This document shows positions 18,824-41,943 of a DNA stretch of 43,802 bases, one piece after another. How positions within the stretch are numbered: position 1 is the first letter of the stretch; each line of letters opens with the position of its first letter. The position numbers and the translations under genes are program-made. Under the pieces are notes generated by a model, which searched no databases, had not been told where the DNA came from, and saw only the letters and a list, made by a program, of their open reading frames with translations. This DNA is from Alphaproteobacteria bacterium (GTDB lineage Bacteria > Pseudomonadota > Alphaproteobacteria > Bin95): positions 1-43,802 of the forward strand of contig JAJECZ010000212.1 of assembly GCA_022821735.1 (NCBI GenBank), given 5' to 3'.

Positions 18824-19741
18824 ATGATGGACCGGATAACGGGAAAGCTCCGCAACCTTGGGGTTGTGGGCGTGACGGCAATGGCATTCCTCGCAGCGTT
18901 GATGCCGACGGAAGCTTTCGCGGCATGCACCGGCCAGTCCTATAGCCAAAGCTATTGTCTCGAGGGCCGGCGCAGCAATCCCAGCATCTTCCAGGATGCC
19001 TACTGGCGCGCGAAGAACATCTGCCGGGGCAACATGAAGGTCGAGATCAGCTTCTACGACAGAAGTTCCGGCGGCAGCCAGGGTTCCAAGGAATTCACCC
19101 TCGCCTACAACGAACAGAGGAGCGACCACACCGAGTCCGGCGTGGCCCATGTCCGATGCTGCGACAGCGGCACCGCCTCGCTGAGCATCGACGGCCGGAG
19201 CGTCAAGCTGTGCGACGTGACCGGGGACGAGTACTCAGACTGGCAGCAGGCAAACCCGGTCATCACCACCGAGGAATGCGCGGCAGAATGGGCGCTCAGC
19301 GACGCCTCGGAGCATTGCGGAGACCCGGATATCGAGGTCGTCGTCGAGAGCGGCGGCAGCAACCGTTGCCAAATCTCAGCGACCTGTACGCCGAACGGCC
19401 TCAGCTACAGCTTCACCAAAGGCGTCAGGTCGGCTCTGGACAATGTCTCGGACCTTTATATCTGCAAGGAAGGGTTCAGCCATTCCGAGTGCGATTACAC
19501 CTGCGACGACCACTATTGCAGCAACGCCGACTGCATCGCGGAGTTCAACGAGAGCCCGGCTGCCGACAGCTGCCATAACCTGAGCACCTCGTTCACCGGG
19601 CCGGACAAATGCGACCTCACGGCGGACTGTCCGACACCGAACAACTGGTTCTACCACCTCACCCTCGACGATATCGATGTGGAGAACGTGGACAGGGTCT
19701 GCAATTACTACGGCACGCGCCTGAAGGTCGGAGGGTGCTGA
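18824..19741 (+). CDS. Cysteine-rich secreted or lipo-protein, long paralog (305 aa, 20 Cys)
   Basis: RBS aggtgaggag; signal peptide ending AFAAC; ends in ...LKVGGC. It shares the N-terminal pattern AAC-x10-12-CLE...NIC...(V/I)R.CC and a duplicated C-terminal C-x5-C-x22-25-C module with the 194-aa paralogs. GC content is lower than in its neighbours. Confidence 0.75.
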   Translation: MMDRITGKLRNLGVVGVTAMAFLAALMPTEAFAACTGQSYSQSYCLEGRRSNPSIFQDAYWRAKNICRGNMKVEISFYDRSSGGSQGSKEFTLAYNEQRSDHTESGVAHVRCCDSGTASLSIDGRSVKLCDVTGDEYSDWQQANPVITTEECAAEWALSDASEHCGDPDIEVVVESGGSNRCQISATCTPNGLSYSFTKGVRSALDNVSDLYICKEGFSHSECDYTCDDHYCSNADCIAEFNESPAADSCHNLSTSFTGPDKCDLTADCPTPNNWFYHLTLDDIDVENVDRVCNYYGTRLKVGGC

Positions 19742-19753
19742 CGGCAAGGAGAC

Positions 19754-21157
19754 ATGGTGCGAACCGCCTGTCTTTGCCTGATCCCGTTCCTATGCGCCGT
19801 CTGGTCGATATCGTACGCGCGTGCAGAGGAACCCGACAGGCCGGAGCGCCGTCCGGTCCCTCTCAGGCTTGAAGACGCAGTCGGGCTGGCACTCGCTGAC
19901 AGTCGCGCCGCCATCGCCGCCCGACTGGGGCGACAGGAGCAAAAGCTCTCGCTGGAGAGGGCCGAGGAACGCTACGACCCCTCGGCCAGCCTGCGCCTGG
20001 GCACGACCGCGCAGAGCCGTGGGGACGAGACAGCATATGTCGCCCTCGGACCGAGCCTGCGGATCCGGACCGGCGGCACTTTCGCACTCGCCTTGCGCAA
20101 GCCGCTGGCCGGAGAGCGCGACCGGGAGACGAGCACGACACTCACCTTTCAACAGCCGTTATTGAAGGGGTTTGGGGCCGATCTGGACACCGGGCCGCTG
20201 CGCCGCGCGCGTCTCGATGAACGCATCGCCGCACGCGCCTTCCGGGATGCGGCATCCGCCATCGTCGACTCGGTGGTCTCTGCCTACCGCGGAGTGCTGA
20301 GGGCGGAACGGAGACTCGTCATCGCGCGCGAGGCGCTGGAACGCGCACAGCGGCAGCTCGGGATCAACCGGACGCTGGTGGAAGGGGGCCGGATGGCGCC
20401 GCAGGACCTGGTGCAGACCGAGGCCGACATCGCCAACAAGGAATATGCCCTGATCGATGCGAAGAACCGTCTGGAAACCGCCACGTCCACCCTTGTCGAC
20501 ACGCTCGATCTCGAAGAGGGCGTGCGCATTGAGGTGCAGGACGAACCGCCTGTCGAGCCGGAGCGGCCGGACCTGGAGGAAAGCCTTGAGACGGCGTTTG
20601 CACGCCGGACGGACTGGCTCAGTGCCGAGATCGGCATGGAACTGGCGCGCATGGGGCTCAGGACAGCGGAGAACAACATGCTGCCGGACCTCACACTGAG
20701 CGCGGAGGCAGCCCATGGCAGCGGGCAAGACCGCACGGACTGGAGCGGCGGGCTGAACCTGACCGTGCCGCTCCAGAACGACGAACCGAGGCGGACGCTG
20801 ACGCGCGCGCGCAACAGCCTCCGACGGGCGGAGATGGCGATGGCCGAGACGCGGCAATCGATCCGCATCGAGGTGCTCGGGACGGTGCATGATGTGGCGG
20901 TGGCGCTGCGCCAGATCGACCTCTCCCGCCAGGCACAGGTGCTCGCAGCGCGCAAGCTCGATATCGAGCGCCGCAAATTGCAGCAGGGCCTTTCCACCGC
21001 CTTCCAGATATCCCGCTTTGAAGATGACCTTGTAGCCACGCAGAACCGAGAACTCGAAGCGGTGGCGCGTTACCGGGACTCACTGTCCAGGCTCGATCGA
21101 ACGCTTGGCACCACGCTCGACCGATGGGGTGTATCGGTAGAACAGGTGGGTCGGTGA
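19754..21157 (+). CDS. TolC-family outer-membrane efflux protein (exporter 1)
   Basis: 467 aa with a signal peptide and two OEP repeats (..LEDAVGLALADSR...; ..LQQGLSTAFQISRFEDDLVATQNRE..). It starts 12 nt after the Cys-rich gene. Confidence 0.9.
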   Translation: MVRTACLCLIPFLCAVWSISYARAEEPDRPERRPVPLRLEDAVGLALADSRAAIAARLGRQEQKLSLERAEERYDPSASLRLGTTAQSRGDETAYVALGPSLRIRTGGTFALALRKPLAGERDRETSTTLTFQQPLLKGFGADLDTGPLRRARLDERIAARAFRDAASAIVDSVVSAYRGVLRAERRLVIAREALERAQRQLGINRTLVEGGRMAPQDLVQTEADIANKEYALIDAKNRLETATSTLVDTLDLEEGVRIEVQDEPPVEPERPDLEESLETAFARRTDWLSAEIGMELARMGLRTAENNMLPDLTLSAEAAHGSGQDRTDWSGGLNLTVPLQNDEPRRTLTRARNSLRRAEMAMAETRQSIRIEVLGTVHDVAVALRQIDLSRQAQVLAARKLDIERRKLQQGLSTAFQISRFEDDLVATQNRELEAVARYRDSLSRLDRTLGTTLDRWGVSVEQVGR

Positions 21158-22899
21158 CCGACCCCGATATCCACCGGGAAGTGCTCGACAATCTCGAGGA
21201 CGGTGTACTTGTCGTCGGCATGGGCGGGAAGGTCCGGACGCTGAACCCGGCCGCCGAGCGCATACTGGGCCTGAATGCCGACGAGGTCGCGGGGAAGGGT
21301 TTCGCCGAACTCTTCGTCACGCGGGAAGGCTTCGACGATTTCACGCAGATGGTGATCGACGCCACGGCAGAGCAGTCGATCGGCCGGCGCCGCGTGATTC
21401 AGGTGGACGGGGGCAACGAAACCCGGGCGCTCTCCATCGTCACCTCGTACCTCCGGCGCAAGAGGGCTTCGGAACCGATGGCGGTGATCGCGGTATTCAG
21501 CGATATCACCGAACTTCGCGATTTGCGGGAAACGGAGCTCAGGCTGGCCCGCGAAGCGGAGACCCAGCATCGCAGCCTTCAGGATGCATACCTTGAGATC
21601 GAGGACCGCAATGCCGCTCTGGCGCAGGCGCTGCGCAAGGTACGTCTGGTGCAGGGTCTGGGCGCGGTGCTCGCCGTTGCCCTGTTTCTCGGAGCCGGTT
21701 TCTGGACTTCGCGTTCGCTGGACCTTTTCGAGGGAGAGGGGATCGAGGCGTCCGCGGCCTCCGACGGCGCTGAACGCCGACTGACCGTGAAGCCGCGTCC
21801 CGTCTCCGACAGCATCACATTGAGAGGAACGCTGAAGCCGTGGCGGATCATACCGGTGCGCAGTCCCGTCGATGGCACCGTCGAGTCCGCCTACTACCGG
21901 ATCGGACAGAAGGTTGTGGAAGGCGAAACACTGCTGAAACTGGATATCAGCCGCGCCAGGCTCGACCATAGCTCGGCCAGCCGCCGCCATGCCGAGGCGC
22001 TCAAGAGGCTGAGGGACCTGGAGGACTGGGAGAACAGTCCGACGATGACCAAGGCCCGGCGGAACTTCATCAGGGCGCGGCTCGACCTGGAAAGCCTGCG
22101 CACGAAGATCAACAGGAGCCGGTTCCTGTTCGAAGAAGGGCTGATTCCGGTATCCGAGCACGAGGATGCGGAGCGGGAGTTCAAGGGACAGGAACTGGAT
22201 TTCGCAGCTGCCGAGGAAGAACTGGAAGCCACGCGTTTGGAAGGCAACGAGGAACGGTTGAATGACGCGCGGCTTGGCCTTGAAGCAGCGCGTATGGAGT
22301 TGCGGGCTACCGAAGCGGCACTCAAGTACGACGAGGTGCACGCCCCGGTATCGGGTGTCGTGCTGGCGCCGCAGCGCGCGGGCCAGGAGATGGTTCCCGG
22401 CAGATCGCTGAAGGCCGGAGGGCAAGTCCTGGAAATCGGCGACTTCTCGCGCATGGCCGTCACGACACAGGTGGACGAGGCGGATGTCGCCAAGCTCCGG
22501 GTGGGCCAGAAAGTCACCGTCAGGGGCAACGCCTTTCATGGGCTCGCGCTCAAGGGAAAGGTCACGCATGTCTCCTCGCAAGCGGACCCCAAGTCGCGCA
22601 GCATCCCGAAGTTCGACGCAAGGGTCACGCTCGATGCGGTGGATCCGGACGAGGCGGCGCAACTCCGCACCGGCATGTCGGCCCGGCTTACGATCGTCAC
22701 CTATGAGAACCCGACGGCCATGCTGGTGCCGATCGACGCGGTGCGCAGCCGGGGCGGCGAGCACCGTCTGCTGGTCATCGATCCCGAGACCGGCGAGGCT
22801 GAGGTCCGCGAGGTCGAGATCGGCCCGACGACACGGACCTCCGTCGAGATCCGGGCCGGCCTCAGGGCGGGCGAAACCATCCTGCTGCCGGGACGATGA
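21154..22899 (+). CDS. Membrane-fusion (HlyD/MacA-type periplasmic adaptor) protein with an N-terminal cytoplasmic PAS domain (exporter 1)
   Basis: The GTG at 21154 overlaps the OMF stop (GTGA). The PAS-like region is LDNLEDGVLVVGMGGKVRTLNPAAERILGL...IAVFSDITELRDLRETELRL. It is followed by a coiled coil, a TM segment (GLGAVLAVALFLGAGFW), then lipoyl/coiled-coil/beta-barrel adaptor motifs (..VRSPVDGTV..; ..VHAPVSGVV..; ..MLVPIDAV..). Confidence 0.85.
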   Translation: MTDPDIHREVLDNLEDGVLVVGMGGKVRTLNPAAERILGLNADEVAGKGFAELFVTREGFDDFTQMVIDATAEQSIGRRRVIQVDGGNETRALSIVTSYLRRKRASEPMAVIAVFSDITELRDLRETELRLAREAETQHRSLQDAYLEIEDRNAALAQALRKVRLVQGLGAVLAVALFLGAGFWTSRSLDLFEGEGIEASAASDGAERRLTVKPRPVSDSITLRGTLKPWRIIPVRSPVDGTVESAYYRIGQKVVEGETLLKLDISRARLDHSSASRRHAEALKRLRDLEDWENSPTMTKARRNFIRARLDLESLRTKINRSRFLFEEGLIPVSEHEDAEREFKGQELDFAAAEEELEATRLEGNEERLNDARLGLEAARMELRATEAALKYDEVHAPVSGVVLAPQRAGQEMVPGRSLKAGGQVLEIGDFSRMAVTTQVDEADVAKLRVGQKVTVRGNAFHGLALKGKVTHVSSQADPKSRSIPKFDARVTLDAVDPDEAAQLRTGMSARLTIVTYENPTAMLVPIDAVRSRGGEHRLLVIDPETGEAEVREVEIGPTTRTSVEIRAGLRAGETILLPGR

Positions 22900-22912: not shown

Positions 22913-23272
22913 ATGGGAAAACTCAATTTCGCCAACCAGCCCGTCTGGACCGGCGACAATCTCGCCATCATGCCGGGCATTCATTCGGATTTGGGCGATC
23001 TCAGCTACCTCGACGCTCCGCTCAACTCAAAAACTGACCATGCCGCGCCGATCGGCAGCAAGGCGGCCGGGGCCGCGAGCAGGGACACATGGTCGCCGGG
23101 CACCCTCGATGCCCTTCAGCGCCTGGAGGCCGATCATATCATCGCACGGGCGAAGGGCGGGACCGACCATGTCGGCAACCTCCAGCTCCTCGGCGGACAC
23201 CGCAACCGCGTGAAGGGAGACCGGGGCATGGTAGAGCTGCGCCCGAAACTCCGACTGCCAAGAGCGTCCTGA
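22913..23272 (+). pseudogene. Collapsed DNA-methyltransferase/HNH remnant inserted inside the exporter-1 operon
   Basis: The N-terminus resembles N6/N4 methylases (..VWTGDNLAIMPGI.SDLGDLSYLDAPLNS), but DPPF/Y has degraded to DAPL. The C-terminus resembles an HNH module (EADHIIARAKGGTDHVGNLQLLGGHRNRVKGDRG), but the CxxC cysteines are lost. Only 119 aa remain. Confidence 0.6.
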
Positions 23273-23286
23273 GCGCCAGGAAAGAG

Positions 23287-23967
23287 ATGCTGGAGCTTTC
23301 CGATGTCCGCAAGACGTTCCGGCGGGGGCCGGTCGAGGTAAAGGTCCTGAGGGGAGTCGACCTCCGCGTGGAGGCGGGCGACCTCATCTCGATCATGGGG
23401 CCGTCCGGCAGCGGCAAGTCCACGCTCATGAACATACTGGGCCTGCTGGGGCGCCAGACAAGCGGCATCTACCGGTTGAACGGCCGCGACGTCTCGACCA
23501 TGGACGACCGCGAACTCTCGGCGTTCCGCAACCGGCATATCGGTTTCGTGTTCCAGTCGTTCAATTTGCTGGGGCATCTGACGGCGCTGGAGAACGCGGC
23601 CCTGCCGCTTGTCTATCGCGGCCTCGGACGGCGGGACGTGCGCCGGCGCGCGCAAGGCATCCTGGAGAAGGTCGGCATGGGCGACCGGCTGGATCACAGG
23701 CCTGACCAGCTGTCGGGCGGCCAGAAGCAGCGGGTGGCGATTGCACGGGCGCTCGTGGGCGAGCCGGGAGTGGTACTGGCCGACGAACCGACCGGAGCGC
23801 TCGACTCCGACACGGCCGACGAGGTGATGCGGCTCCTGGTCCGGCTCAACCGGGATGAGGGTGTCGCGGTGGTCATCATCACGCACGCTCCTTCGGTATC
23901 CCGGCAATGCTGCCGGCAGACCCTGATCCGGGACGGCGCATTGCTGGAAGACGGCGACACGGCATGA
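23287..23967 (+). CDS. ABC transporter ATP-binding protein, MacB/LolD type (exporter 1)
   Basis: Walker A (GPSGSGKST), Q-loop, signature (LSGGQKQRVAIARAL) and Walker B (VLADEPTGALD). Confidence 0.95.
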   Translation: MLELSDVRKTFRRGPVEVKVLRGVDLRVEAGDLISIMGPSGSGKSTLMNILGLLGRQTSGIYRLNGRDVSTMDDRELSAFRNRHIGFVFQSFNLLGHLTALENAALPLVYRGLGRRDVRRRAQGILEKVGMGDRLDHRPDQLSGGQKQRVAIARALVGEPGVVLADEPTGALDSDTADEVMRLLVRLNRDEGVAVVIITHAPSVSRQCCRQTLIRDGALLEDGDTA

Positions 23968-25163
23968 GACACACCAGTCCCGCACTCATGGACAGCCTGC
24001 GCGAGGCCTTGCGGAGCCTCTTGCGGGCCCGGCTGCGCACCGTGCTCGGCCTCATCGGCATCGCCATCGGCATCGCTTCGGTGATCGCCATGGTCTCGAT
24101 AGGCGAGGTCGCCACCGCCGAGGCCCGCAAACAATTCGAGGCCCTCGGCACCGATATCGTCACAGTCAAGACGGCGAAGGACTACAGGGGCCCCGGGATT
24201 GCCTTGGAGGCCGCGCTGTCGCTGACGGACTCGCTGTCCGCCATCTCCGCGGCATCGCCGACCATTCTTGGCGGAACCAACTTCGTTCATGCCGGCCGGC
24301 GCGTGGGCACCGGCTCCGTCAAGGGGGTCAGAGCGTCCTATGCGGACCTCGTGAAGCTCGAAATCGCGGAGGGGCGGTTCGTGTCGGACCTCGACGCCGG
24401 AAGCCTGTGGTGCGTGGTCGGCGCGAACGTTGCCGCAGCCATTCGCCGGGCCGGAACGCTCGACCCACTAAGCGCCGAGCTTGAGGTTGACGGACGCTTC
24501 TACCGGGTCGCCGGCGTGCTGCGAAACCGTGAGGAAACCCATGGCCTTCCCTTCGAAGTGGACGCAGACAAATCCGTGTTCGTCCCGGCTGTCACGGCCT
24601 GGCGCGCCACGCCGAATCCGGAGGTCGGAACGATCATCGCCCGCGCCGCGCCCGGCATCCACCATGAAGATGCGGTGCGCGCGATCAAGACCTGGTTCAA
24701 TGAGCGGCAGCCGGAACTCAAGCTGGAGGTAAGAAGCGCCAAGCAGCTGATCGCACAGATGGAAAACCAGCTGGGCCTGATGGCCATGCTGTTGGGTGCG
24801 GTCGGCAGCATCAGCCTCGTCGTCGGCGGTATCGGTGTCATGAACATCATGCTGATTTCGGTCGCGGAACGTCGGCGCGAAATCGGTGTCCGCCGGGCGC
24901 TCGGCGCCAGCCGGATCGACATAAGGCGTCAATTCCTGGTCGAGTCGGTCATTCTGACGCTCGTCGGCGGCAGTTTCGGCTTTGTCATCGGCAGCGTCGC
25001 CACCTGGGGCATCTGCGAGTTCACAGACTGGGACTTCTTCGTTTCACCGCTCTCGGTGGTCGTCGGGCTCGTCATCTCGTCGGCCGTGGGTATCTTCTTC
25101 GGCATCCAGCCCGCCTACCAGGCCTCCCGTCTCGATCCCATCGTGGCATTGCAGGGAGAATGA
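23964..25163 (+). CDS. ABC transporter permease, MacB/FtsX type with a large periplasmic domain (exporter 1)
   Basis: The ATG at 23964 overlaps the ATPase stop (ATGA). It has TM1, a ~220-aa periplasmic domain, then an FtsX 3-TM bundle (..GGIGVMNIMLISVAERRREIGVRRALGA..; C-terminal ..PAYQASRLDPIVALQGE). Confidence 0.9.
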   Translation: MRHTSPALMDSLREALRSLLRARLRTVLGLIGIAIGIASVIAMVSIGEVATAEARKQFEALGTDIVTVKTAKDYRGPGIALEAALSLTDSLSAISAASPTILGGTNFVHAGRRVGTGSVKGVRASYADLVKLEIAEGRFVSDLDAGSLWCVVGANVAAAIRRAGTLDPLSAELEVDGRFYRVAGVLRNREETHGLPFEVDADKSVFVPAVTAWRATPNPEVGTIIARAAPGIHHEDAVRAIKTWFNERQPELKLEVRSAKQLIAQMENQLGLMAMLLGAVGSISLVVGGIGVMNIMLISVAERRREIGVRRALGASRIDIRRQFLVESVILTLVGGSFGFVIGSVATWGICEFTDWDFFVSPLSVVVGLVISSAVGIFFGIQPAYQASRLDPIVALQGE

Positions 25164-26077: not shown

Positions 26078-29000
26078 CTAGAAATGGGCTTTGGCGAGAG
26101 CAACAGCATCGAGTCCGATCTGCGCCCCGATGAGCCGTCCCGGGATGTCGTCCGCCGGCGGGTGGATGCCGCCCCATATGCGCGACAGGCTGCACTGGTC
26201 GGCGGCGTCGCGATAGGTCGCCCATTGCAGCACCATGTCCACTGATGGCCCACGCTCGAAGACCAGGAACCCGTTCGCCGGGATCCGGAACTCACTCATG
26301 CCGCCGGGAAAGAACGGGTCGCCGGTAAGCGCCGTCAGCACCTCCGCCGCAGCCCGAGAATAAGTGGAATGACCCGAGACATAGCCCGCGAAGGGCGGGG
26401 TGACGAACGTGGGCCGCTGGTAGGGCCACCAGTGTTCCGCGAGAATCCAGCCGACACCGGCCGCGTCGGTCGCCGGGTCGGCTACGTGGTCGGGCCCGCG
26501 CCAGGCCCGTATCTTGATCTTGCCCGCATGCGCACCGTCCTCGCCCGCGAGAGGGTCGTCCGGGCCGACCAGCTCGATCAGGCCGGCCGTTAACGGGATG
26601 CCGTCGGCGGACCATGAAGGAAGCGCGGGATCGCTGGACTGTCCCTGGTCCGCCATGAACCTGATTGCCGAGATCGGCCGGACATAGTCATACCAACCCT
26701 TGACCCCCCATGAAGCGATGGCGGCGTCGTGCATCGCTCCGCCCAGGGCGAAGTATGTCTTCACGTCCCATTCGAGCGGATCGAGAACGGGCCCCTCCCC
26801 CCCGAGCCGCCTGACCAGCTTCTCGTGGTCGCTGACCGCATTCAGGATCGCGTACCAGTGGCCGGGCGGGGTCTCGGAGTCGGGTCCGTCGGCCCAGAAC
26901 TCGGCGAGCGCGCGCGCATAGTCGCCGCGCGGCACGACCTGGGGCACGTAGGGCTCGCCCGTGGCGGGATTGACCCGGTGACCCGGACCGTGCGGGTTCC
27001 CGTCGTAGAAGGAAGGATAATCCTCGACCCTGCGCGGCAGAGCGGAGATGTTGCCGATGCCCGAAGGCGCGATGTCCATCAGCACGCCGTCCGCAGGCGA
27101 AAGCTCGGACGACCACCGGGCAACCAGCGAGAAGCCCCACCTGTAGTGTCCGGACAGGGAATCTCTCGAGAATGGCGGCGGGCCGGGATCGTGGTAGACG
27201 TACCAGTCGGCCCCGTCCCTGCGATAGACTGAAAGGTCTTTCCCTGACAGCGCGAAGGGCAGGACCCGGCCCCACTCGGGAGTAACGAAGACGGAAATGT
27301 TGTCCGCTGCGAATCCCGCCTGGTCCACGAAGCTCGCCAGATGGAGGGGTTGCCAGCGGTCGGGATCCGCGAGGTCCGGATTGCCCGGACGCGACGGCTT
27401 CAGCTTCCTGTTGACAGGCTCGTAGTGGAGGCTTGCGTAGTTGTTCGCCTCGTTGGAGCCGTCCTCAAACCCCCGGGCGATGTAGAGCGCGCCGATGCAG
27501 GCGCCCAACGCCGCCGCGGGCCCGCTGTTGCCGGCGTCGTATCCAAGCGCTGCCATGAGCGTATCGGCGTTGCGCAGGGTTGCGGACGCCCCCGGCGAAT
27601 GCCGGAAGCGGTGCCGGATGAGGCGCCACGCAGCATGGCTGATGGCTTCCCGTCGCGCGGCAGGGATGCCATCGGCAGACGGAACCGGCGTCGGCTCGCA
27701 GACGGGGTCGGGGTCGCCGAACAGGTAGGGCCTCGCCGTTCCGGAATACGAGGCCCAGGCGTCGTACATGGCGGCGGACAGATGAAACAGGTTTCGGGCA
27801 TGGACCGTCGGCCGCGAGAGATCGTCGCGGATCGCCTGCAACAGTACCTCGATCCAGCGCCGCGCGACCGAGATACCGGGGTCCGACAGTGCCGGCCCCG
27901 GCAGGAAGTTGGCAAAGATCGTCGCGTCGTTCGCCGGCATGACGAATGTCGTGCGGGGCGAGCGATCGTCGGCAAATGTCCCGCCGCCCTCGCTGCTCCA
28001 GTGGCTGAAGCGATAGTTGTCTGCAGGTGCGCCGGCCTCGACGGAGACCGTTTCCCCTTCGGCATGGAGACCGCCTTCAGCGCCGCCCGCAACGCTGAGC
28101 ACGGAGCCGCGGTGCGGCGGCTGACGGATGCTGAGACGACGGTCGGCCAGGATGTTCTCCAGCCGGCTGACCTCACCGCCCGGGCCGGGCCACATCACCT
28201 CCACCGCGGATACCGTTTGCTCCCGGCCGAGGCCGAAGTGCAACGTCGCAGGCCCCTGGGACAGGTAGCCGTCGCCAAACCGAACCTCTTGCGTCTGGCT
28301 GCCTGACGGAGTGTGGACGACCACGCGGGCGCCGATCGCCTCCGGGTTGGCATGCCGGCCGACGAGGTCGAGGGCGAGCCAGTGATTGCCGGTCTCGAAG
28401 GCGTTGCGATAGACGGTCGGAGCGGCGCCCAGATTGGCGATGAAGATGTCGACCCTGCCATCGCCATCGTAGTCCGTGCAGACGACGCCCCGGCCCTGGC
28501 CGGTGTGATCGATACCGAGTTCGCTTCCGCGTTCCGAGAAGGTGCCGTCTCCGTTCGACATGAACAGGCGCGACCTGTCCTCGAGAAATTCGAGCACGCT
28601 CTCCCTGTCTTCAGCTTCGCTGGGATCGTTGTCCACATTCCACCCGTTGGTATGAAAGAGATCGAGGTGGCCGTCATTGTCGAAATCCGCCCAGCAGGCG
28701 CCCCAGCCCCAGCCGCCCTCGCGAACGCCGGCGGCCTCGGTTGCATCCTCGAACCTGCCCGTCCCGTCGATGTTCCGATAGAGGCGGTTCCCGGTGGTTC
28801 CCTGGCCGCCGCTCTTGTCCGGGTCGAAGATGCTGGTCACGAACCAGTCGATATCGCCGTCCCGGTCGTAGTCGCCGGCCGAGGCGCCCATGCCGTTCTC
28901 GTCGGTCAGTACTGTCTTCCCCGTTTCGACGAAGGCGATACCGCGGTCGTTGCGCAGAATCTGGCTCGTCCCGAAGTCGCCGGCCAGCAGCAGATCGGGA

Positions 29001-29770
29001 TCGCCGTCTCCATCGATATCGGCGAATGTCGGCGTGAAGGCGTAGTGGAACGGCGTGCCCGACCTGCGGGTTTCCCGGGCATGCATGAGGATTTCGCTCA
29101 CGTCCCGATAGCGTCCCCTGCCGTCGTTTCGCCAGAGAAGGTGCGAGGGAGGGCGCACCCGGTTCGGAATTCTGCTCCAATGTGAAAAGAACAGGTCCAG
29201 GTCGCCGTCGCTGTCGTAGTCCGCCGCCGCCATGGAGTAGGCCGCCTGGTTGTGCCGGATACCGGAAATGCCGGGCGCCGTCGCGAACCGCCCTGTTCCG
29301 TCGTTGCGGAAGACCTGGACGCCGGTCTGCTGAAGCGACACGAAATCCTTCCGGCCGTCGCGGTCGAGATCGATGAAATACCCCGCCCAATCCATGTCCG
29401 CAGGTTCGATGCCGCGATTGCCGTCACGCTCCACGAAGCCGGTGCCGTCATAGCTGAACAGACGGCCCGTCTTGCCGACTCCATGGGCGACGTAGAGATC
29501 GAGCTTGCCGTCATTGTCGATGTCGGAGAGCGACAGGCCGGCAGCCTCGGGTTGTGCGCCGGCTTCCTCCAACAGTCTCCCCGAGCCGGGCACCACCGGG
29601 TAGTCGAGGCCGATCGCGGCCGAGACCTCCACGAAGCCGCGCCCTCGATATACCGCGTCTTCAGCCGACACCTCGTTCCAACCCGCAACGAACAGAAGGG
29701 CAAGGAAGAAGCGACACGACAGGCGTGCGCCACGGCGCGGACCCGCGTTTCCCTGTCGTGCCGCCTTCAT
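26078..29770 (-). CDS. Secreted multidomain protein: FG-GAP/VCBS repeats plus UnbV/ASPIC, an InlB-B-repeat-like domain, and a C-terminal vanadium-haloperoxidase/PAP2-like domain
   Basis: Signal peptide (..FFLALLFVAGWNEVSA). Many D.D.DGD.D FG-GAP repeats. ASPIC motif (GDGYLSQGPATLHFGLG....V..VEVMWPG). Repeat domain (..YRFSHWSSEGGGTF...TTFVMPANDATIFANF). PAP2/haloperoxidase motifs (YDYVRPISAIRF; YVSGHSTYS; SRIWGGIHPPADD). Confidence 0.85.
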   Translation of the reverse strand: MKAARQGNAGPRRGARLSCRFFLALLFVAGWNEVSAEDAVYRGRGFVEVSAAIGLDYPVVPGSGRLLEEAGAQPEAAGLSLSDIDNDGKLDLYVAHGVGKTGRLFSYDGTGFVERDGNRGIEPADMDWAGYFIDLDRDGRKDFVSLQQTGVQVFRNDGTGRFATAPGISGIRHNQAAYSMAAADYDSDGDLDLFFSHWSRIPNRVRPPSHLLWRNDGRGRYRDVSEILMHARETRRSGTPFHYAFTPTFADIDGDGDPDLLLAGDFGTSQILRNDRGIAFVETGKTVLTDENGMGASAGDYDRDGDIDWFVTSIFDPDKSGGQGTTGNRLYRNIDGTGRFEDATEAAGVREGGWGWGACWADFDNDGHLDLFHTNGWNVDNDPSEAEDRESVLEFLEDRSRLFMSNGDGTFSERGSELGIDHTGQGRGVVCTDYDGDGRVDIFIANLGAAPTVYRNAFETGNHWLALDLVGRHANPEAIGARVVVHTPSGSQTQEVRFGDGYLSQGPATLHFGLGREQTVSAVEVMWPGPGGEVSRLENILADRRLSIRQPPHRGSVLSVAGGAEGGLHAEGETVSVEAGAPADNYRFSHWSSEGGGTFADDRSPRTTFVMPANDATIFANFLPGPALSDPGISVARRWIEVLLQAIRDDLSRPTVHARNLFHLSAAMYDAWASYSGTARPYLFGDPDPVCEPTPVPSADGIPAARREAISHAAWRLIRHRFRHSPGASATLRNADTLMAALGYDAGNSGPAAALGACIGALYIARGFEDGSNEANNYASLHYEPVNRKLKPSRPGNPDLADPDRWQPLHLASFVDQAGFAADNISVFVTPEWGRVLPFALSGKDLSVYRRDGADWYVYHDPGPPPFSRDSLSGHYRWGFSLVARWSSELSPADGVLMDIAPSGIGNISALPRRVEDYPSFYDGNPHGPGHRVNPATGEPYVPQVVPRGDYARALAEFWADGPDSETPPGHWYAILNAVSDHEKLVRRLGGEGPVLDPLEWDVKTYFALGGAMHDAAIASWGVKGWYDYVRPISAIRFMADQGQSSDPALPSWSADGIPLTAGLIELVGPDDPLAGEDGAHAGKIKIRAWRGPDHVADPATDAAGVGWILAEHWWPYQRPTFVTPPFAGYVSGHSTYSRAAAEVLTALTGDPFFPGGMSEFRIPANGFLVFERGPSVDMVLQWATYRDAADQCSLSRIWGGIHPPADDIPGRLIGAQIGLDAVALAKAHF

Positions 29771-36836: not shown

Positions 36837-38051
36837 CTATTCGCCCTGCAGCGCGATGATGGGATCCAGGCGCGAAGCCTGGTAGGCGGGCTGGAAGCCG
36901 AAGAAGAGGCCGATCGCGGACGAGACGCCGACGCCGGCAGCGATGGATGTCGGCGAGACGAAGAAATCCCACTCGAAGAAGAACCGGCACAGGCCGTAAG
37001 TCGCTCCTGTTCCGATGAGAATGCCGACCACCCCGCCGCCCATGGTGAGGATCAGGGCCTCGACCAGGAACTGGCTCTGGATGTCGCCGGGGCTCGCGCC
37101 GAGGGCCAGCCGAACGCCGATCTCGCGGCGCCGCTCGGCCACCGAAATCAGCATGACGTTCATCACGCCGAGCCCGCCCACGATCAGGCTGATGCTGCCG
37201 ACCGCGCCGAGCAGCAGGGTCATCACGCCCAGCTGTGCCTCCATGCGCTCGATCAGCTGCTCGGCGCTGGTGACCTGGACGGCGAGGCCCCGGGACCGTT
37301 CGGCGAAGAAGGTCTGGATGTCCGCGGCGGCGTCCGCGTAGTGAACGCCGGGCGCAACCCGGGCGACGATCAGTTCGATCTGCGCGTCCGGACTGAGGCG
37401 CCGGACCGTGGTAACGGGAACGAATACGGATTTGTTCGCGTCCACGGAAAACGGCAGCGCATAGCTCTCGGGCGTGTCGGCCAGTACGCCGATCACGGTG
37501 TAGAGCCAGTCTCCGGCCCCCACGATCTCGCCCACGACCTCGCTTGCGCCGAGCCGGCGCATTTTCTGCGCCACCTCGGCGCCCACCACCGCGAAATAGC
37601 GCCCCCTGTCCAGGTCCGAGACGAAGCGCCCCTCGGCGACCTGCAGCCGGTTTACGCGCGCAAACGACTCCGAAACGCCCTGTACGGAGCCGGAACCGGC
37701 GTCCTTGCCGGCATACAGGAAGGAACCGCTTGACCGTATCCTGGGCGCCGCCTCGGCAATGGTCGAAAGCCTGTCGGCAACGTCGAGCGCATCCTCCAGA
37801 CCGATGGCCGCGTCTTGCGCGGCGGCCGGCTGGTCCTCCGACTTGAGGACCGAAAGTATATCGGTCCCGACAGCCTCGAACTTCTTGCGCGCCTCGGCGG
37901 TGGCGATTTCCCCGGTCGAGATCATCGCGATCACCGACGCGATGCCCATCGCGATGCCGACCAGCCCCAGGATCGTGCGGAGCCTTGCACGCAGGAGGCT
38001 GCGCGCGGCCTCGCGCAGGCTGTCGGTCAATGCGGCTCCCCCGCGCGCCAT
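36837..38051 (-). CDS. ABC transporter permease, MacB/FtsX type (exporter 2)
   Basis: Colinear with the 23964 permease (MARGGAALTDSLREAARSLLRARLRTILG...PAYQASRLDPIIALQGE). The ATG at 38051 is preferred over the longer ORF. Confidence 0.9.
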   Translation of the reverse strand: MARGGAALTDSLREAARSLLRARLRTILGLVGIAMGIASVIAMISTGEIATAEARKKFEAVGTDILSVLKSEDQPAAAQDAAIGLEDALDVADRLSTIAEAAPRIRSSGSFLYAGKDAGSGSVQGVSESFARVNRLQVAEGRFVSDLDRGRYFAVVGAEVAQKMRRLGASEVVGEIVGAGDWLYTVIGVLADTPESYALPFSVDANKSVFVPVTTVRRLSPDAQIELIVARVAPGVHYADAAADIQTFFAERSRGLAVQVTSAEQLIERMEAQLGVMTLLLGAVGSISLIVGGLGVMNVMLISVAERRREIGVRLALGASPGDIQSQFLVEALILTMGGGVVGILIGTGATYGLCRFFFEWDFFVSPTSIAAGVGVSSAIGLFFGFQPAYQASRLDPIIALQGE

Positions 38052-38062
38052 AACGCCGCCGT

Positions 38063-38743
<681 letters not shown>

Positions 38744-38758: not shown

Positions 38759-40531
38759 TCAGTATTCCGGCACCGCGATTTCGTCGCCGGCCTCCAGGCC
38801 TGCAACGATCTCGACGGAACTCATCGTGGTCAGACCGATTTCGACTTCGCGCTCGACCGTTTCGCCGGTGCCCGGATCGACAATCTGCACCCAGTGCGAC
38901 CGCCCGCGACGGTCCACCGCCGCCAGCGGCACCGTGAGCGCCTCCTCGTTGCGGTAGACGACGATCTCCAGCCTGCTGGACATCCCGGCGCGCAGCCGCC
39001 GCTGTTGTGCGTCGTCGAGCGGATCGAGCGTCACCCTGACGGCGAAACGGGACGCTCTCCCCGTCTGTTGCACCGGCTGCGACGAGACCTGGGTCACGGT
39101 CCCCTTCAGCATCAGGTCGCGAAAGGCGTTCCCGGTTACCGATACGGCCTGCCCGACGGCGATCCGGACCACGTCGACTTCGTCCACCTTCGCGGTTGCC
39201 GCCATCCGGGTGAAGTCTCCGATGGTGAGCAGATGGTCGCCCTTACGTACGGCCCGGCCTGCCGCCAGGGCCGGGCCGCGCGACGAGGACGCCATGACCA
39301 CCCCCGACAGCGGTGCATGGATACGCCCCTTGTCGAGGTCTTCCGCCAGCTCCCGCAATGTTTCCTCGGCAGTGCTGAGTTCCAGCGCCGCCTTGTCCTG
39401 CGCCTCCTTGCCGCCCCTGGCCCGGGCCGCCTCGAAGTCTTCGCGGGCTGCCTCGAAATCCAGAAGCTGGCTCTGGTACCGCCGTTCCGCATCCTCGCGC
39501 TCGGAGGTGGCGACCAGGCCCTGTTCCAGCAGGAACGCGGTCCGCTTCAGCTGCCTCTCCTGATCCTCCAGTTCCATGCGCGCACGCGCGAACGACCGCC
39601 TGGCAGCCGCCATCTCGGAGCCGGTCTCCCAGTTTGTGACGGTTTCGAACGCATCCGCCTTTTCGATGTGGGCCACTTGCGCCTCGCGGTGCTTTTGCAC
39701 CGCTTCGGAGGTATCCAGTTCCATCAGGAGACCGCCCTCCTGCACCGCCTGGCCGTGCTCGAAATGCACGGCTTCGATGCGGCTCTCGATCGGACTCGTC
39801 ACCGCAACCGTCCGCCATGGCGCCAGCTTGCCCGACAGCGTGATCGTCTCGCTTACCGGCTGCGGCCCCACGGTCACCGTGTAATGGCCTTCTTCGAGCC
39901 CGGCCCTGGCAGGGGAGACAACGGACTGATCGAGCGAGCCCTCAAAGAGATCGAGCGGCTGCCACACATAGGCGCCGGCGCCCAGGAACGTCCCGATCAC
40001 AACCACCGTCGCGACGATCCGCGCCACCTGGACCTGTCTCAGGGTCGCCGCCAGGGTCCGGTTGCGGTCCTCGATCTGCCGGTACGCCGACTGAAGCTCG
40101 GCGTGCTGCGCCTCCACTGCCTTCGCCATCCGCAGTTCGGTCTCGCGCAGCTCCTTGAGCTCGGTGATGTCGCTGAAGACGGCGATCAGCGCCATCGGCG
40201 CCGACTCGCCGTCCGCGCCCGACCGAAGATAGGATGTCGCTACCGAGAGCGACCGGGCTTCCCCGCCTCTCTCCAGCGCCACCACCCGCCGGCCGCCGTC
40301 GCTCTCCCCGGTCACGGCGTCGAGGATCAGCCCGCTCAGCTCTTCGAAGCCGTCGCGGTCGATGAAGAGTTGGGCGAAGGACCCGCCCACGGCCTCGTCC
40401 GGCGCGAGCCCGAGGATGCGTCCCGCCGCCTCGTTGAACACCGAAACGGTGCCGCCGCGCTCGACCACGATCACGCCGTCGGACAGGTTCTCCAGAACGC
40501 TCCCGCGTATATCGGCGAACCCGCCCGTCAT
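38759..40531 (-). CDS. Membrane-fusion protein with an N-terminal cytoplasmic PAS domain (exporter 2)
   Basis: The ATG at 40531 overlaps the OMF stop (ATGA). MTGGFADIRGSVLENLSDGVIVVERGGTVSVFNEAAGRILGL...IAVFSDITELKELRETELRM, then a TM segment (IVATVVVIGTFLGAGAYVW) and the adaptor domains. The 945-aa ORF extension overlaps the OMF gene and is rejected. Confidence 0.85.
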   Translation of the reverse strand: MTGGFADIRGSVLENLSDGVIVVERGGTVSVFNEAAGRILGLAPDEAVGGSFAQLFIDRDGFEELSGLILDAVTGESDGGRRVVALERGGEARSLSVATSYLRSGADGESAPMALIAVFSDITELKELRETELRMAKAVEAQHAELQSAYRQIEDRNRTLAATLRQVQVARIVATVVVIGTFLGAGAYVWQPLDLFEGSLDQSVVSPARAGLEEGHYTVTVGPQPVSETITLSGKLAPWRTVAVTSPIESRIEAVHFEHGQAVQEGGLLMELDTSEAVQKHREAQVAHIEKADAFETVTNWETGSEMAAARRSFARARMELEDQERQLKRTAFLLEQGLVATSEREDAERRYQSQLLDFEAAREDFEAARARGGKEAQDKAALELSTAEETLRELAEDLDKGRIHAPLSGVVMASSSRGPALAAGRAVRKGDHLLTIGDFTRMAATAKVDEVDVVRIAVGQAVSVTGNAFRDLMLKGTVTQVSSQPVQQTGRASRFAVRVTLDPLDDAQQRRLRAGMSSRLEIVVYRNEEALTVPLAAVDRRGRSHWVQIVDPGTGETVEREVEIGLTTMSSVEIVAGLEAGDEIAVPEY

Positions 40532-41943
40532 TGCCCGACCTGCTCGACCGTTATGCCCCAGGTCTCCAGGGTCGTGCCAAGGGTCCGATCCAGCGCCAGG
40601 AGCGCGTTGTCGTAGCCGGCGAGAGCGTCGACCTCGGCGTTCTGCGCACCGACAAGGTCCTCCTCGAACCGGCTTAGCTGGAAGGTGGACGAGAGACCCT
40701 GCTGCAGCTTGCTCCGCTCGATCGCGAGCTTCTCCTCGGTAAGTTCGCGCGCCCTGCGGGCCAGCTCGATCTGCCGCTGCCCCACCTCTACGTCGTACAC
40801 GGCCTGGCGCACGGCGATGCCCATCGCCTGTCGCAGTTCCTTCAGGCCCCGCTCCGCGCGCCGAACGTCCGCCCGGGCGCTCCTGAGCCCGAGTTCGGGC
40901 GAGCGGTCCCACAGCGGAACGGTCAGCCGCAGGCCGGCGGAATAGTCGATCCCCACATCGCCGCCGGTGCCCCGCGACATGTCCGCATCCAGGGACAGGT
41001 CCCAGAGCTTGCTGTTCTCGGCAACCGTCAGCCCGATCCCGGCGATCTCCCTGACCAGAAGCGCCTGCGCATAGCCGGGCGAGTGCCTGAGCGCCGTCTC
41101 GATGGCCTGCTCGACCGAAAGCGGCCGGCGCGGAACGGACGGCGCCTCGACCGGACGGATCACCGTTGAACTGTCGATGTCGAGAATGTCGATCAGGGAG
41201 AAATTGGCCGAGGTCACGCCGTTCCGGGTCTGCACCAGGCCGAGTTCCCTTCCGGCCACATCCGCCTCGCTCTGGAGCAGTTCGCGGGCCGCCATCTGGC
41301 CCGCCTCGACGAGCTTGCGGTTGATGTCCAGCTGCTCCCGCGCGCGGGCCAGAGAGGCCTCGCCGATCTCGAGCTGGCGCCGCGACTGCACCAGGCCACG
41401 CCAGGCCTGGATCGTGGAAATCACGACGCCCGCGACCGCCTGGCGGAAGGCCAGCACACCGATTCGTTCGCCGATCCGCGCCACCCGCAGCGGCGCCGTA
41501 TCGATGTCCGTCCCGAAGCCGCGCAGCAACGGCTGCGAGAAACCCAGCGAGACCGTGCCCGAAGTGTCCTCCCCGCCGGCAAGCGGCTTCGACCACCGCA
41601 AACTGATCTGCCCCCCGGTGGGAATCCGCAGACCGGTCCCGATGGAAGCATCTGCCGTCATCTGCCCGTCCCTTTGGGCACGCACCGTCGGCGCGATGCT
41701 CCCAATGGGGCTGTAGCGGTCCTCGGCCACCTCGAGCGAGAATTTCTGGATGGCGCGGGAGAGACGGGCGTCGAGCAGGCCCCGGTTGTTCTCCAGCGCC
41801 AGCGCGATCGCGTCATCCAGCGTCAGCGCGAGGCGGCCGGCAGGTACCCCCACCTGGCCCAGTCCCGGCGAAGGCCGCAACACCGTCATCGCCGCTGCCG
41901 GAAGCAGCAGAGCGACTATGGCAACTATGGAAATCCGGGTCAT
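40528..41943 (-). CDS. TolC-family outer-membrane efflux protein (exporter 2)
   Basis: 471 aa with a signal peptide (MTRISIVAIVALLLPAAAMT). It is colinear with the 19754 OMF, at roughly half identity by eye. Confidence 0.9.
   Translation of the reverse strand: MTRISIVAIVALLLPAAAMTVLRPSPGLGQVGVPAGRLALTLDDAIALALENNRGLLDARLSRAIQKFSLEVAEDRYSPIGSIAPTVRAQRDGQMTADASIGTGLRIPTGGQISLRWSKPLAGGEDTSGTVSLGFSQPLLRGFGTDIDTAPLRVARIGERIGVLAFRQAVAGVVISTIQAWRGLVQSRRQLEIGEASLARAREQLDINRKLVEAGQMAARELLQSEADVAGRELGLVQTRNGVTSANFSLIDILDIDSSTVIRPVEAPSVPRRPLSVEQAIETALRHSPGYAQALLVREIAGIGLTVAENSKLWDLSLDADMSRGTGGDVGIDYSAGLRLTVPLWDRSPELGLRSARADVRRAERGLKELRQAMGIAVRQAVYDVEVGQRQIELARRARELTEEKLAIERSKLQQGLSSTFQLSRFEEDLVGAQNAEVDALAGYDNALLALDRTLGTTLETWGITVEQVGQ

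Follow-up and report, generated by a model that had tools for sequence, protein, structure and literature searches.

A PAS-helix module in MacA-type periplasmic adaptors as a possible cytoplasmic input to MacAB-TolC-type pumps of uncultured bacteria

Results

Two paralogous pump loci

The window, i.e. the whole stretch of 43,802 nucleotides analysed here (positions 1 to 43,802 of contig JAJECZ010000212.1 from an uncultured alphaproteobacterium), carries two loci that encode a TolC-like outer-membrane factor, a periplasmic adaptor (MFP1 or MFP2), an ABC ATPase and a permease (Table 1). Coordinates and content of both adaptors agree with the preliminary description (21154-22899 on the forward and 40531-38759 on the reverse strand), and the length of MFP1 is the same in an independent gene call from the public assembly, which also contains the genes of ATPase 1 and permease 1. 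Identity between the two adaptors is 47% from end to end, PAS region included. The start codon of MFP1, GTG, shares bases with the TGA at which the TolC-like gene upstream of it terminates (GTGA), and the start of MFP2 likewise overlaps the stop of its own outer-membrane factor gene. Permease 1 and ATPase 1 genes overlap by 4 nt, while the true start of permease 2 is probably internal, close to the stop of ATPase 2. Outer-membrane factor 1 also matches TIGR01844, with E = 6.7e-22 and a score below the cut-off. No insertions peculiar to the ATPase or permease were found relative to MacB.

Table 1. Features of the two pump loci, in coordinates of the window.
Feature	Coordinates	Strand	Evidence
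TolC-like outer-membrane factor 1	19754..21157	+	PF02321 OEP 124.3 bits
MFP1: PAS, helix, TM and MacA-type periplasmic adaptor, 581 aa	21154..22899	+	
MFP1 cytoplasmic PAS domain, residues 8-118, C-terminal FSDIT	21175..21507	+	Pfam, TIGR00229, AF2, Foldseek
MFP1 cytoplasmic signalling-type helix, residues 119-164	21508..21645	+	AF2, conservation, dN/dS
MFP1 single transmembrane segment, residues 165-185, N-in	21646..21708	+	Hydropathy, positive-inside analysis
MFP1 periplasmic part: linker, membrane-proximal domain, beta-barrel, lipoyl domain, long alpha-hairpin	21709..22899	+	AF2, Foldseek, TIGR01730
MacB/LolD-type ABC ATPase 1, separate NBD subunit, 226 aa	23287..23967	+	PF00005; MacB NBD region 1.9e-77
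MacB-type permease 1 (MacB_PCD and FtsX)	23964..25163	+	PF12704 99.9 bits, PF02687 70.9 bits
MacB-type permease 2 (MacB_PCD and FtsX)	36837..38123	-	PF12704 105.1 bits, PF02687 71.7 bits
MacB/LolD-type ABC ATPase 2	38063..38743	-	PF00005 116.4 bits
MFP2: paralogous PAS, helix, TM and MacA-type adaptor, 590 aa	38759..40531	-	
MFP2 transmembrane segment, residues ~169-190	39962..40027	-	Hydropathy, positive-inside analysis
MFP2 cytoplasmic helix, residues ~123-168	40028..40165	-	Alignments; DIT-to-FLGxG spacing 61 as in orthologs
MFP2 PAS domain, residues ~10-122	40166..40504	-	Pfam PAS, TIGR00229, alignment to MFP1
TolC-like outer-membrane factor 2	40528..41943	-	PF02321 128.6 bits

Class of the adaptors

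The AlphaFold2 (AF2) model of MFP1 (pLDDT 83.8) consists of a PAS domain, a helix and MacA-like domains, in this order. The best Foldseek matches of the periplasmic part are MacA chains 9qgy_G (3.7e-25) and 5nik_D, representing MacA in MacAB-TolC, and its four-domain fold also matches AcrA, MexA and EmrA. HlyD_D23 and HlyD_3 profiles match both adaptors, and TIGR01730 (RND_mfp) scores 151.7 bits in MFP1 and 111.9 in MFP2 (cut-off 94.9). Both features that characterize MacA-type adaptors, an N-terminal TM anchor and an operon shared with a MacB_PCD and FtsX permease, an NBD and an outer-membrane factor, were found. The proteins are not E. coli MacA orthologs, as the MacA equivalog model NF008606, with a cut-off of 342 bits, gives them only 69.2 and 71.1. 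Scores also lie below the cut-offs for TIGR02971 (DevB family; 50.9 and 67.4 bits, cut-off 129) and TIGR01843 (type_I_hlyD; 52.8 and 48.9 bits, cut-off 208.65). From the initial designation as MacA/HlyD-type, the MacA part is retained, while the HlyD type of type I secretion is dropped in view of the TIGR01843 scores and the FtsX/MacB-type partner.

PAS domain

Profiles detect a PAS domain in both paralogs: PAS_4 scores 35.2 bits in MFP1 and 28.5 in MFP2 (GA cut-off 23.1), PAS 33.8 and 33.9 (GA 22.6), and TIGR00229 sensory_box 46.5 and 46.8 (cut-off 22.9). In the AF2 model, the PAS alpha/beta fold spans MFP1 residues 4-117, with beta-beta-alpha-alpha-alpha-alpha-beta-beta-beta secondary structure in residues 17-117 (pLDDT ~80). 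Foldseek retrieved 383 PDB matches for this region at E <= 1e-3, headed by WalK, short LOV, FixL, NifL and LOV-kinase chimeras (E 2e-8 to 1e-6), and these top-matching sensor PAS structures bear C-terminal signalling helices. A PDB sequence search with the N-terminal profile gave only weak, generic PAS matches (E ~1e-3), and no close solved relative of the N-terminal module. The preliminary description had staked its PAS fold on profile support; with profile scores above the cut-offs in both paralogs, together with AF2 and Foldseek, the fold stands. Its length has to be corrected from ~130 to ~110 residues, followed by a cytoplasmic helix of ~46 residues.

No invariant or near-invariant Cys or His was detected in residues 8-118 in alignments of 39 and 19 sequences; the MFP1 PAS domain has no Cys, and its sole His is His7. 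Among PAS residues, G17, V18, G25, N31 and D117 are the only ones to reach at least 90% conservation in the broad family. Because so few are conserved, a common ligand pocket is not evident, and since conserved Cys and His are missing from the core as well, the PAS domain could be ligand-free. LOV-type light sensing is unlikely because the adduct-forming Cys is not conserved, and FixL-type haem-O2 sensing is unlikely because the proximal His of the F-alpha helix is not conserved. The PAS core carries no cofactor signature; of the signals suggested earlier (redox state, a ligand or light), light is disfavoured in its LOV form.

Helix, linker and topology

A single unbroken helix extends through MFP1 residues 119-185, continuous into the TM segment in the AF2 model. 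The PAS-end junction is marked by FSDIT at residues 115-119. The spacing between DIT and the TM motif FLGxG is 61 residues in every member having both motifs, and no helix indels exist across the members compared. The helix is the most conserved region, with 73% mean pairwise identity vs 54% in the adaptor part, and its conservation has a periodicity of 3.5-3.6 residues; highly conserved polar residues are R125, E128, Q138, Y146, E150 and N153. The module therefore has the hallmark composition of a PAS-signalling helix, a DIT junction at which I-beta continues into a long helix of fixed length.

Hydropathy analysis disclosed one hydrophobic peak at ~165-185 (Kyte-Doolittle mean ~2.0), the next-best window reaching at most 1.5. 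Flanking K/R residues number 3-5 on the N-side and 0-2 on the C-side in all 39 sequences examined. This excess indicates N-in topology, which places the PAS domain in the cytoplasm. Both analyses are in accord with the cytoplasmic PAS domain and single TM segment proposed at the outset.

Selection and authenticity of the N-terminus

The cytoplasmic module is under purifying selection, strongest on the helix: dN/dS is 0.09-0.23 in the helix, 0.28-0.49 in the PAS domain and 0.26-0.45 in the adaptor part. These values bear on whether the extension could be an annotation artefact, i.e. translation of the adaptor beginning close to the TM segment, downstream of a PAS-like stretch that is not translated, belongs to another gene or is decaying as a remnant. 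The GTG start codon of MFP1 and the tendency of high-GC DNA to give rise to long spurious ORFs speak for such an error. It is opposed by the conservation of residues 1-185 at the protein level, in more than 120 clusters at 90% identity and at least 80 at 50%, by dN/dS well below 1, by the absence of helix indels, by overlap of the start with the upstream stop in both paralogs and most loci, and by confident AF2 prediction of the N-terminal region. An artefact is effectively refuted already, and we assign it a negligible probability. Conservation and dN/dS rule out a downstream start codon, which the preliminary description had named as one of the observations that would undo its proposal; the N-terminus is conserved and its start is coupled to the upstream stop in most loci. 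The claim that retention of the module reflects function is likewise sustained in the evolutionary sense, by dN/dS below 1 and at least 80 clusters at 50% identity.

Distribution and modularity of the family

A search through a set of 5.8 billion proteins with the N-terminal 181 aa as a query gave mostly truncated or frameshifted fragments, of little use for a profile; the N-terminal profile was built from N-termini taken out of a full-length alignment. The only protein names encountered, with matches from the 181-aa search, read “PAS domain-containing protein, partial”. The profile search revealed 124 proteins at E <= 1e-30. The architecture, known initially from two paralogs, is common to at least 80 clusters at 50% identity, and the survey called for at that stage therefore extends its retention well beyond them. 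Among 82 representatives of 544-1064 aa, HlyD_3 is present in 81 and PAS_4 in 79. The cassette of outer-membrane protein, PAS-adaptor, MacB-type ATPase and FtsX/MacB permease is kept in ~45 loci, and the four genes persist together in distant members whose other neighbours are unrelated. All genome matches are uncultured MAGs, often with several paralogous PAS-adaptors per genome. MAG and sample labels did not identify a habitat; labels such as SB0662_bin, RHO3_bin and CAR2_bin give an impression of sponge symbionts at most. The fusion was not found in 72,556 plasmids searched by tblastn with the N-terminal 215 aa, in which only generic PAS matches were obtained (AtoS, 29-32% identity).

Some relatives show rearranged architectures. 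One protein has cNMP_binding, PAS and HlyD domains (P0300), a partial one cNMP_binding and PAS (P0239), and in a third the same PAS and helix (73% identical) are joined to STAS in place of the TM-adaptor (P0143). The added cNMP-binding domain and the STAS swap suggest that the module points to signalling input. The DIT motif, the invariant 61-residue linker, the 3.5-residue periodicity and the domain shuffling are consistent with a module for sensory input.

The module could, alternatively, be a structural scaffold without signal input, in which PAS domains and helices oligomerise, stabilising adaptor stoichiometry or docking the separate ATPase, for example as three PAS dimers beneath one MacA hexamer. 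Many PAS domains are ligand-free dimerisation modules, and here cofactor residues are not conserved, pocket residues vary in the broad family, and helix conservation is strongest on one face, as predicted for a packing interface. An extra docking element is also plausible because the ATPase is encoded as a separate polypeptide, unlike in the fused E. coli MacB. However, the DIT junction and strictly invariant linker are hallmarks of signal-transmitting PAS-helix units, stacking of a cNMP-binding sensor upstream, or re-use with a STAS output, in relatives is the behaviour of an input module, and ordinary split MacB/DevCA/LolCDE systems assemble without any PAS-helix module. We consider a pure scaffold unlikely, although it deserves to be kept in mind.

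Neighbouring genes and candidate cargo

In the clade studied, pump genes adjoin genes for cysteine-rich proteins with Sec signals (12 Cys, ~170 aa when mature) and for DsbA-like or DCC-like oxidoreductases. Distant family members are devoid of 12-Cys and oxidoreductase neighbours. By analogy with the disulfide-bonded enterotoxin STII, which MacAB-TolC exports, the pump in this clade likely serves export connected with the 12-cysteine proteins encoded nearby and with the genes for their oxidative folding or modification. This choice of cargo is weak because mature 12-Cys proteins of ~170 aa may exceed the TolC-type duct. No NCBIfam model matches the HTTM or DCC1-like proteins, and a literature search on an SdpB/SdpA-type reading of these neighbours gave nothing usable. 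An equivalence of the neighbouring HTTM and DCC genes to SdpB/SdpA, in which case the pump might export a toxin in the manner of YknXYZ, is kept as a lead only.

Apart from the four pump genes themselves, the family shows no conserved neighbour of the cassette that would encode a cytoplasmic partner. This observation weighs against a platform role, in which the PAS-helix would bind a cytoplasmic protein or precursor and couple its availability to duct recruitment, or would report pump activity inward (flux sensing). Such a role has a parallel in the cytoplasmic N-terminal domain of HlyD, as the delta-N45 variant neither recruits TolC nor activates HlyB (PMC4446572). The conserved polar helix residues listed above could form a protein-binding surface, and MacB-family transporters engage in transmembrane signalling in other systems (PMC5985334). 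Nevertheless, the transporter is MacB-type, acting on periplasmic substrates by mechanotransmission, and not a 6-TM ABC exporter of type I secretion, in keeping with the low TIGR01843 score (only 52.8 bits, cut-off 208.65). A platform role seems to us improbable.

Discussion

Proposed function of the PAS-helix module

With slightly more confidence than doubt, we favour the interpretation that the PAS-helix adaptor provides a cytoplasmic input module through which a MacAB-TolC-type pump is tuned by a signal; both the signal and the gating of the pump are inferred. Each locus encodes a tripartite envelope pump of the MacAB-TolC type, in which an adaptor of the hexamer-forming MacA type is combined with a TolC-like duct, an FtsX/MacB permease and a MacB-type ATPase that is a subunit of its own. 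What this adaptor has gained is a cytoplasmic PAS domain and, beyond the canonical DIT junction, a rigid helix of ~46 residues running unbroken into the TM helix. The PAS domain may read a cytoplasmic cue, most likely a small molecule or a metabolic or redox-linked state, rather than LOV-type light or His-ligated haem. Sensing would make the helix pack or rotate differently, by the mechanism of PAS-coiled-coil sensor kinases, and the change might pass through TM helices encircling the MacB-type dimer, with PAS domains located beside the ATPase subunits. In this way, ATPase cycling and/or adaptor assembly would be tuned, switching export from the periplasm to the outside on or off post-translationally.

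Published work provides some precedents. MacA regulates MacB ATPase (PMC2613632), and MacB acts by mechanotransmission on periplasmic cargo such as STII, which depends on Sec and DsbA (PMC5985334). At the same time, transmission through the TM helix is not established even in E. coli, because the N-terminal helix of MacA was reported as dispensable in one study (PMC2613632). That ATPase and permease carry no special insertions when compared with MacB also counts against the proposal.

A more specific version of the proposal, which we regard as possible but rather less than probable, is that of a one-component sensor adaptor. In it, a cytoplasmic PAS domain (cNMP-binding and PAS in some relatives) would read an intracellular cue and, via a helix of fixed register that continues into the TM segment, switch a MacAB-TolC-type pump post-translationally and thereby control release of 12-cysteine proteins in uncultured, possibly host-associated, marine bacteria.

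Control of tripartite efflux and secretion pumps is thought to be mainly transcriptional, and periplasmic adaptors, whose cytoplasmic tails are short, are viewed as connectors that are passive or coupled mechanically. We found no description in the literature of a PAS domain fused to a membrane fusion protein, HlyD, MacA or a periplasmic adaptor, and a text search of two major reviews of the field finds none that refers to a sensory domain on an adaptor. The PAS-adaptor design is conserved yet undescribed, and suggests that the pump is adjusted by its own adaptor in response to a signal from inside the cell. If true, this would be an undescribed layer of pump control, seated in the adaptor instead of in transcription, and a natural case in which a signal controls a trans-envelope pump directly and post-translationally. 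Mutants in helix register and in the PAS domain would then offer a handle on how adaptor, MacB-type permease and ATPase pass information across the inner membrane, and PAS swapping would be a candidate route to ligand- or light-switchable export. Visibility only in uncultured organisms and multiple paralogs per genome hint at an ecological role.

Comparison with known systems

The closest structural counterpart is E. coli MacA (PDB 5NIK, 9QGY, 3FPP), the best match of MFP1 residues ~210-581 at ~20% identity. Both have one TM anchor, located at the N-terminus, a long hairpin, and membrane-proximal, barrel and lipoyl domains, and operon partners correspond to those of MacAB-TolC (MacB-type permease, MacB/LolD-type NBD, TolC-like duct). 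Unlike E. coli MacA with its short cytoplasmic tail, the adaptors described here have ~164 cytoplasmic residues, comprised of PAS and helix, before the TM segment, and unlike in E. coli MacB, ATPase and permease are encoded by separate genes.

HlyD has a cytoplasmic N-terminal domain of ~60 residues before its single TM segment, needed for communication across the membrane in the form of TolC recruitment and ATPase activation (PMC4446572). Its cytoplasmic segment is a short amphipathic region and not a PAS domain, and its partner is a 6-TM ABC exporter taking cytoplasmic cargo, whereas the partner here is FtsX/MacB-type. The route of STII export through Sec, DsbA and MacAB-TolC (PMC5985334) is mirrored, at the level of genes, by Sec-signal Cys-rich proteins and oxidoreductases beside the pumps, although STII is a peptide of 48 residues and the neighbouring proteins have ~170 residues and 12 Cys when mature.

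On the cytoplasmic side, the module has neither the Cys by which LOV domains bind flavin nor the His by which FixL binds haem. Its C-terminal helix leaves I-beta via D-I-T, as in WalK, FixL, YF1-type LOV-kinase chimeras and NifL, and fixed length of the helical linker and heptad-like conservation are shared with PAS-coiled-coil sensors. Unlike in PAS sensor kinases, the output is a TM helix with a periplasmic pump adaptor, instead of a kinase, GGDEF or DNA-binding domain.

Domain architecture and topology of the adaptors

The two periplasmic adaptors of the contig, MFP1 (21154-22899, +; 581 aa) and its paralog MFP2 (40531-38759, -; 590 aa), had been described preliminarily as carrying an N-terminal PAS domain fused to a MacA/HlyD-type protein, and matches above the cut-off in Pfam and NCBIfam bear this out for both. 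In Pfam, PAS_4 scores 35.2 bits in MFP1 and 28.5 bits in MFP2 (GA 23.1) and PAS 33.8 and 33.9 bits (GA 22.6), with HlyD_D23 and HlyD_3 likewise matched in the two proteins. Among the NCBIfam models, TIGR00229 “sensory box” (cut-off 22.9) reaches 46.5 bits in MFP1 and 46.8 bits in MFP2, and TIGR01730 “RND_mfp” (cut-off 94.9) reaches 151.7 and 111.9 bits. Assignment to a type I secretion system was ruled out (TIGR01843, 52.8 bits vs a cut-off of 208.65), as was orthology with E. coli MacA (NF008606, 69 bits vs 342).

The MFP1 open reading frame spans 21124-22899 (+). Its start is the GTG at 21154, the biologically sensible choice: together with the stop TGA of the gene before it, this codon forms the overlap GTGA. 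The public contig carries an independent gene call with the same GTG 21154 start and 581 aa. MFP2 starts at 40531 (-), where it overlaps the stop codon of the gene that precedes it. The paralogs are 47% identical over their whole length, the N-terminal 190 residues included. We attach hardly any weight to the explanation that the PAS-adaptor is an annotation artefact.

An AlphaFold2 model of MFP1, built from a 39-sequence alignment (mean pLDDT 83.8), shows a PAS alpha/beta fold at residues 4-117, one unbroken helix (119-185) and a disordered stretch (186-206), beyond which lie beta-rich domains and a long four-helix hairpin region (266-390). Residues 1-192 modelled alone gave the same PAS and helix (pLDDT 82.5). 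In Foldseek searches of the PDB, the best match to the C-terminal 380 residues is MacA in MacAB-TolC (9qgy_G, 3.7e-25; 5nik_D), followed by AcrA, MexA and EmrA. The N-terminal model resembles sensor PAS domains with a C-terminal signalling helix (E 2e-8 to 1e-6), including WalK, short LOV proteins, FixL, NifL and LOV-kinase chimeras, with 383 matches at E ≤ 1e-3. The sole hydrophobic segment, at about residues 165-185, is flanked in 39 of 39 sequences by 3-5 K/R N-terminally and by 0-2 C-terminally; because of this N-terminal enrichment, the PAS domain is placed in the cytoplasm.

Conservation and modularity of the PAS-helix

Within the close family, helix 119-164 has the highest mean pairwise identity (73%), ahead of PAS (60%), the TM segment (57%), the adaptor proper (54%) and the periplasmic linker (40%); in the broad family, the values are 38.6% for the helix, 35.5% for PAS, 28.1% for the TM segment, 33.7% for the adaptor proper and 15.8% for the linker. 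Across seven pairs (Nei-Gojobori), dN/dS is 0.28-0.49 in PAS, 0.09-0.23 in the helix and 0.26-0.45 in the adaptor. Conservation along the helix has a period of 3.5-3.6 residues, and conserved positions include the polar R125, E128, Q138, Y146, E150 and N153. From the Asp of the “DIT” motif at the PAS end to the Phe of “FLGxG” in the TM segment there are 61 residues in all members with both motifs, a spacing kept without indels down to 40% identity. With dN/dS well below 1 across PAS and helix and with this fixed spacing, the module is functional in evolutionary terms, as had been proposed. A DIT junction followed by a fixed-length helical linker is the route by which PAS sensors such as FixL and YF1 transmit signals to their effectors.

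Family alignments revealed no conserved Cys or His in the PAS core, for which reason FixL-type haem ligation and LOV-type photochemistry are unlikely; light, one of the signals put forward in the preliminary description, is therefore disfavoured. Only G17, V18, G25, N31 and D117 are at least 90% conserved among PAS positions of the broad family. Judging by these alignments, the PAS domain would have either a diversified pocket or else no ligand. A less probable reading, to be taken seriously nonetheless, is that the PAS-helix serves as a ligand-free scaffold.

Evidence against a purely structural role comes from the partners of the module. A cNMP-binding domain lies N-terminal to PAS in the distant family members P0300 (621 aa; cNMP_binding, PAS and HlyD) and P0239 (389 aa, partial). 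In P0143 (308 aa; locus L045, 8001-8927), PAS and helix, 73% identical to MFP1 residues 1-173, are joined to STAS exactly at the expected TM start; a LuxR-type gene adjoins, pump genes are absent from the locus, and the same MAG holds three full-length PAS-adaptor copies. P0143 is a recent domain swap, in which the module was re-used with a partner-switching output. A class III adenylate/guanylate (nucleotidyl) cyclase gene is divergent from the gene for the TolC-like outer-membrane factor (OEP) in a distant operon (L053, 5253-6188; L054, 286-1221). Shuffling of this kind is typical of signalling input modules and speaks against the scaffold.

Family size and distribution

A full-length search yielded at least 120 clusters (90% identity) of 581-625 aa, 46-69% identical at 99-100% coverage, nearly all with PAS and adaptor Pfam matches. 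With a profile of the N-terminal 192 residues, 124 proteins were retrieved at E ≤ 1e-30 from 1.84 billion representatives; most are 565-650 aa long with the PAS-helix module at the N-terminus, and a Pfam scan of 82 such sequences detected HlyD_3 in 81 and PAS_4 in 79. Scanning GTDB (one genome per species) with two family-specific peptide patterns, by which distant members are under-sampled, located 48 loci, all in MAGs, labelled Alphaproteobacteria, Binatia, Gammaproteobacteria/Arenicellales and one “Chloroflexi”. Every genome matched is an uncultured MAG, some with up to four paralogs. The labels SB0662_bin, SB0675_bin, RHO3_bin and CAR2_bin resemble those of what we presume to be sponge-symbiont binning projects. 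In cultured bacteria, the nearest PAS domains belong to AtoS-type kinases (29-32% identity).

A second PAS-adaptor subfamily, more divergent (37-39% identical) and with the motif FSDIS, was also observed (L001, 16379-17746; L005, 13016-14761, -). Its distance to a first-subfamily cassette in the same genomes is at most 5-7 kb, and its helix spacing is apparently slightly different.

The PAS domain, the MacA-type adaptor and the split MacB pump are already known as parts. In databases, their combination carries automatic annotations, e.g. “PAS domain-containing protein”; a literature search found no paper in which a periplasmic adaptor bears a sensory domain, and two comprehensive reviews are silent too.

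Pump cassette and proposed mechanism

Both cassettes in the window comprise a TolC-like OEP, the PAS-adaptor, a MacB/LolD-type ABC ATPase and a MacB_PCD + FtsX permease. The ATPase resembles the NBD part of MacB (1.9e-77) and the permease its membrane part (6.7e-50). Because of this make-up, with ATPase and permease encoded separately, we regard the system as a MacAB-TolC-like pump with a split MacB. There is a 4-nt overlap between OEP and adaptor genes and another of 4 nt between ATPase and permease genes. The four-gene cassette occurs in about 45 of the 48 loci, and also in three distant members with otherwise unrelated neighbours. The gap between MFP1 and the ATPase gene, mostly ~5-100 nt in other loci, is filled here by a 119-aa ORF with a marginal HNH endonuclease match (PF01844, 22.2 vs 21.4 bits) and an N-terminal stretch resembling a degenerate DNA-methylase motif. 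The ORF could be what is left of a small mobile or selfish element.

No cargo crosses the inner membrane through MacB-type transporters; cytoplasmic ATP hydrolysis drives periplasmic motions that expel periplasmic substrates via MacA and TolC (PMC5985334). The MacB ATPase is modulated by MacA, although it is disputed whether the N-terminal helix of MacA is required (PMC2613632), and HlyD lacking its cytoplasmic N-terminus neither recruits TolC nor activates HlyB (PMC4446572). With a cytoplasmic helix of ~46 residues, the PAS domains would sit roughly level with the NBDs. The state of PAS could alter helix packing or rotation, and the change could be relayed by the TM helices around the permease dimer or act directly on the ATPase subunits, so that ATPase cycling or adaptor assembly would be tuned. 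We infer this three-step route as the most economical model and lean towards it by a modest degree. That the PAS-helix instead binds a partner or reports flux seems improbable.

Gene island beside the pumps

In the clade of the window, the pumps lie within an island of Cys-rich, HTTM, DCC1-like, DsbA-like and FG-GAP/VCPO-like genes.

Features in the gene island and in the cassette of MFP1
Feature	Position	Strand	Remarks
Larger relative of 12-Cys proteins	18824-19741	+	
119-aa ORF	22913-23272	+	Between MFP1 and ATPase gene
1230-aa FG-GAP/VCPO-like protein	26078-29770	-	FG-GAP_3 repeats, ASPIC/UnbV, InlB-B-repeat-like domain
Secreted 12-Cys proteins	30589-31173, 31973-32557	+	Sec-type signal peptide, conserved Cys
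DsbA-like protein	33841-34605	-	
DCC1-like thiol-disulfide oxidoreductase	34693-35202	+	PF04134, 43.7 bits
HTTM / vitamin-K-dependent-carboxylase-like membrane protein	35217-36782	-	PF05090, 229.8 bits; PF22777
Secreted 12-Cys protein	42798-43367	-	Sec-type signal peptide, conserved Cys

The 1230-aa protein has a weak vanadium-chloroperoxidase-like match in its C-terminal domain and orthologs (65-70% identity) near the pump in L013, L014, L019, L022 and L048. The 12-Cys family is multi-copy, with four or five members in the window and up to 4 per locus; precursors are ~190-215 aa long, with a Sec-type signal peptide ending in AxA followed by (A/S)C, and twelve Cys columns are conserved among 27 aligned sequences. 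Searches of Pfam and NCBIfam gave no match to this family. The gene immediately preceding the OEP gene, on the same strand, encodes a Cys-rich protein in at least 10 related loci.

This association is similar to the route of enterotoxin STII, via Sec, DsbA and MacAB-TolC (PMC5985334). STII is much smaller than the 12-Cys proteins and distant PAS-adaptor members are without Cys-rich or oxidoreductase neighbours, so the 12-Cys proteins are assigned to the pumps, as cargo or as accessory proteins, only tentatively. The HTTM, DCC1-like and DsbA-like genes, whose products gave no match to NCBIfam models, adjoin pump 2, the cassette of MFP2, and are also found next to the pump in L001, L010, L011, L018, L043 and L046. 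Together with the pump, this set may parallel sdpAB and the MacB-type pump YknXYZ of B. subtilis.
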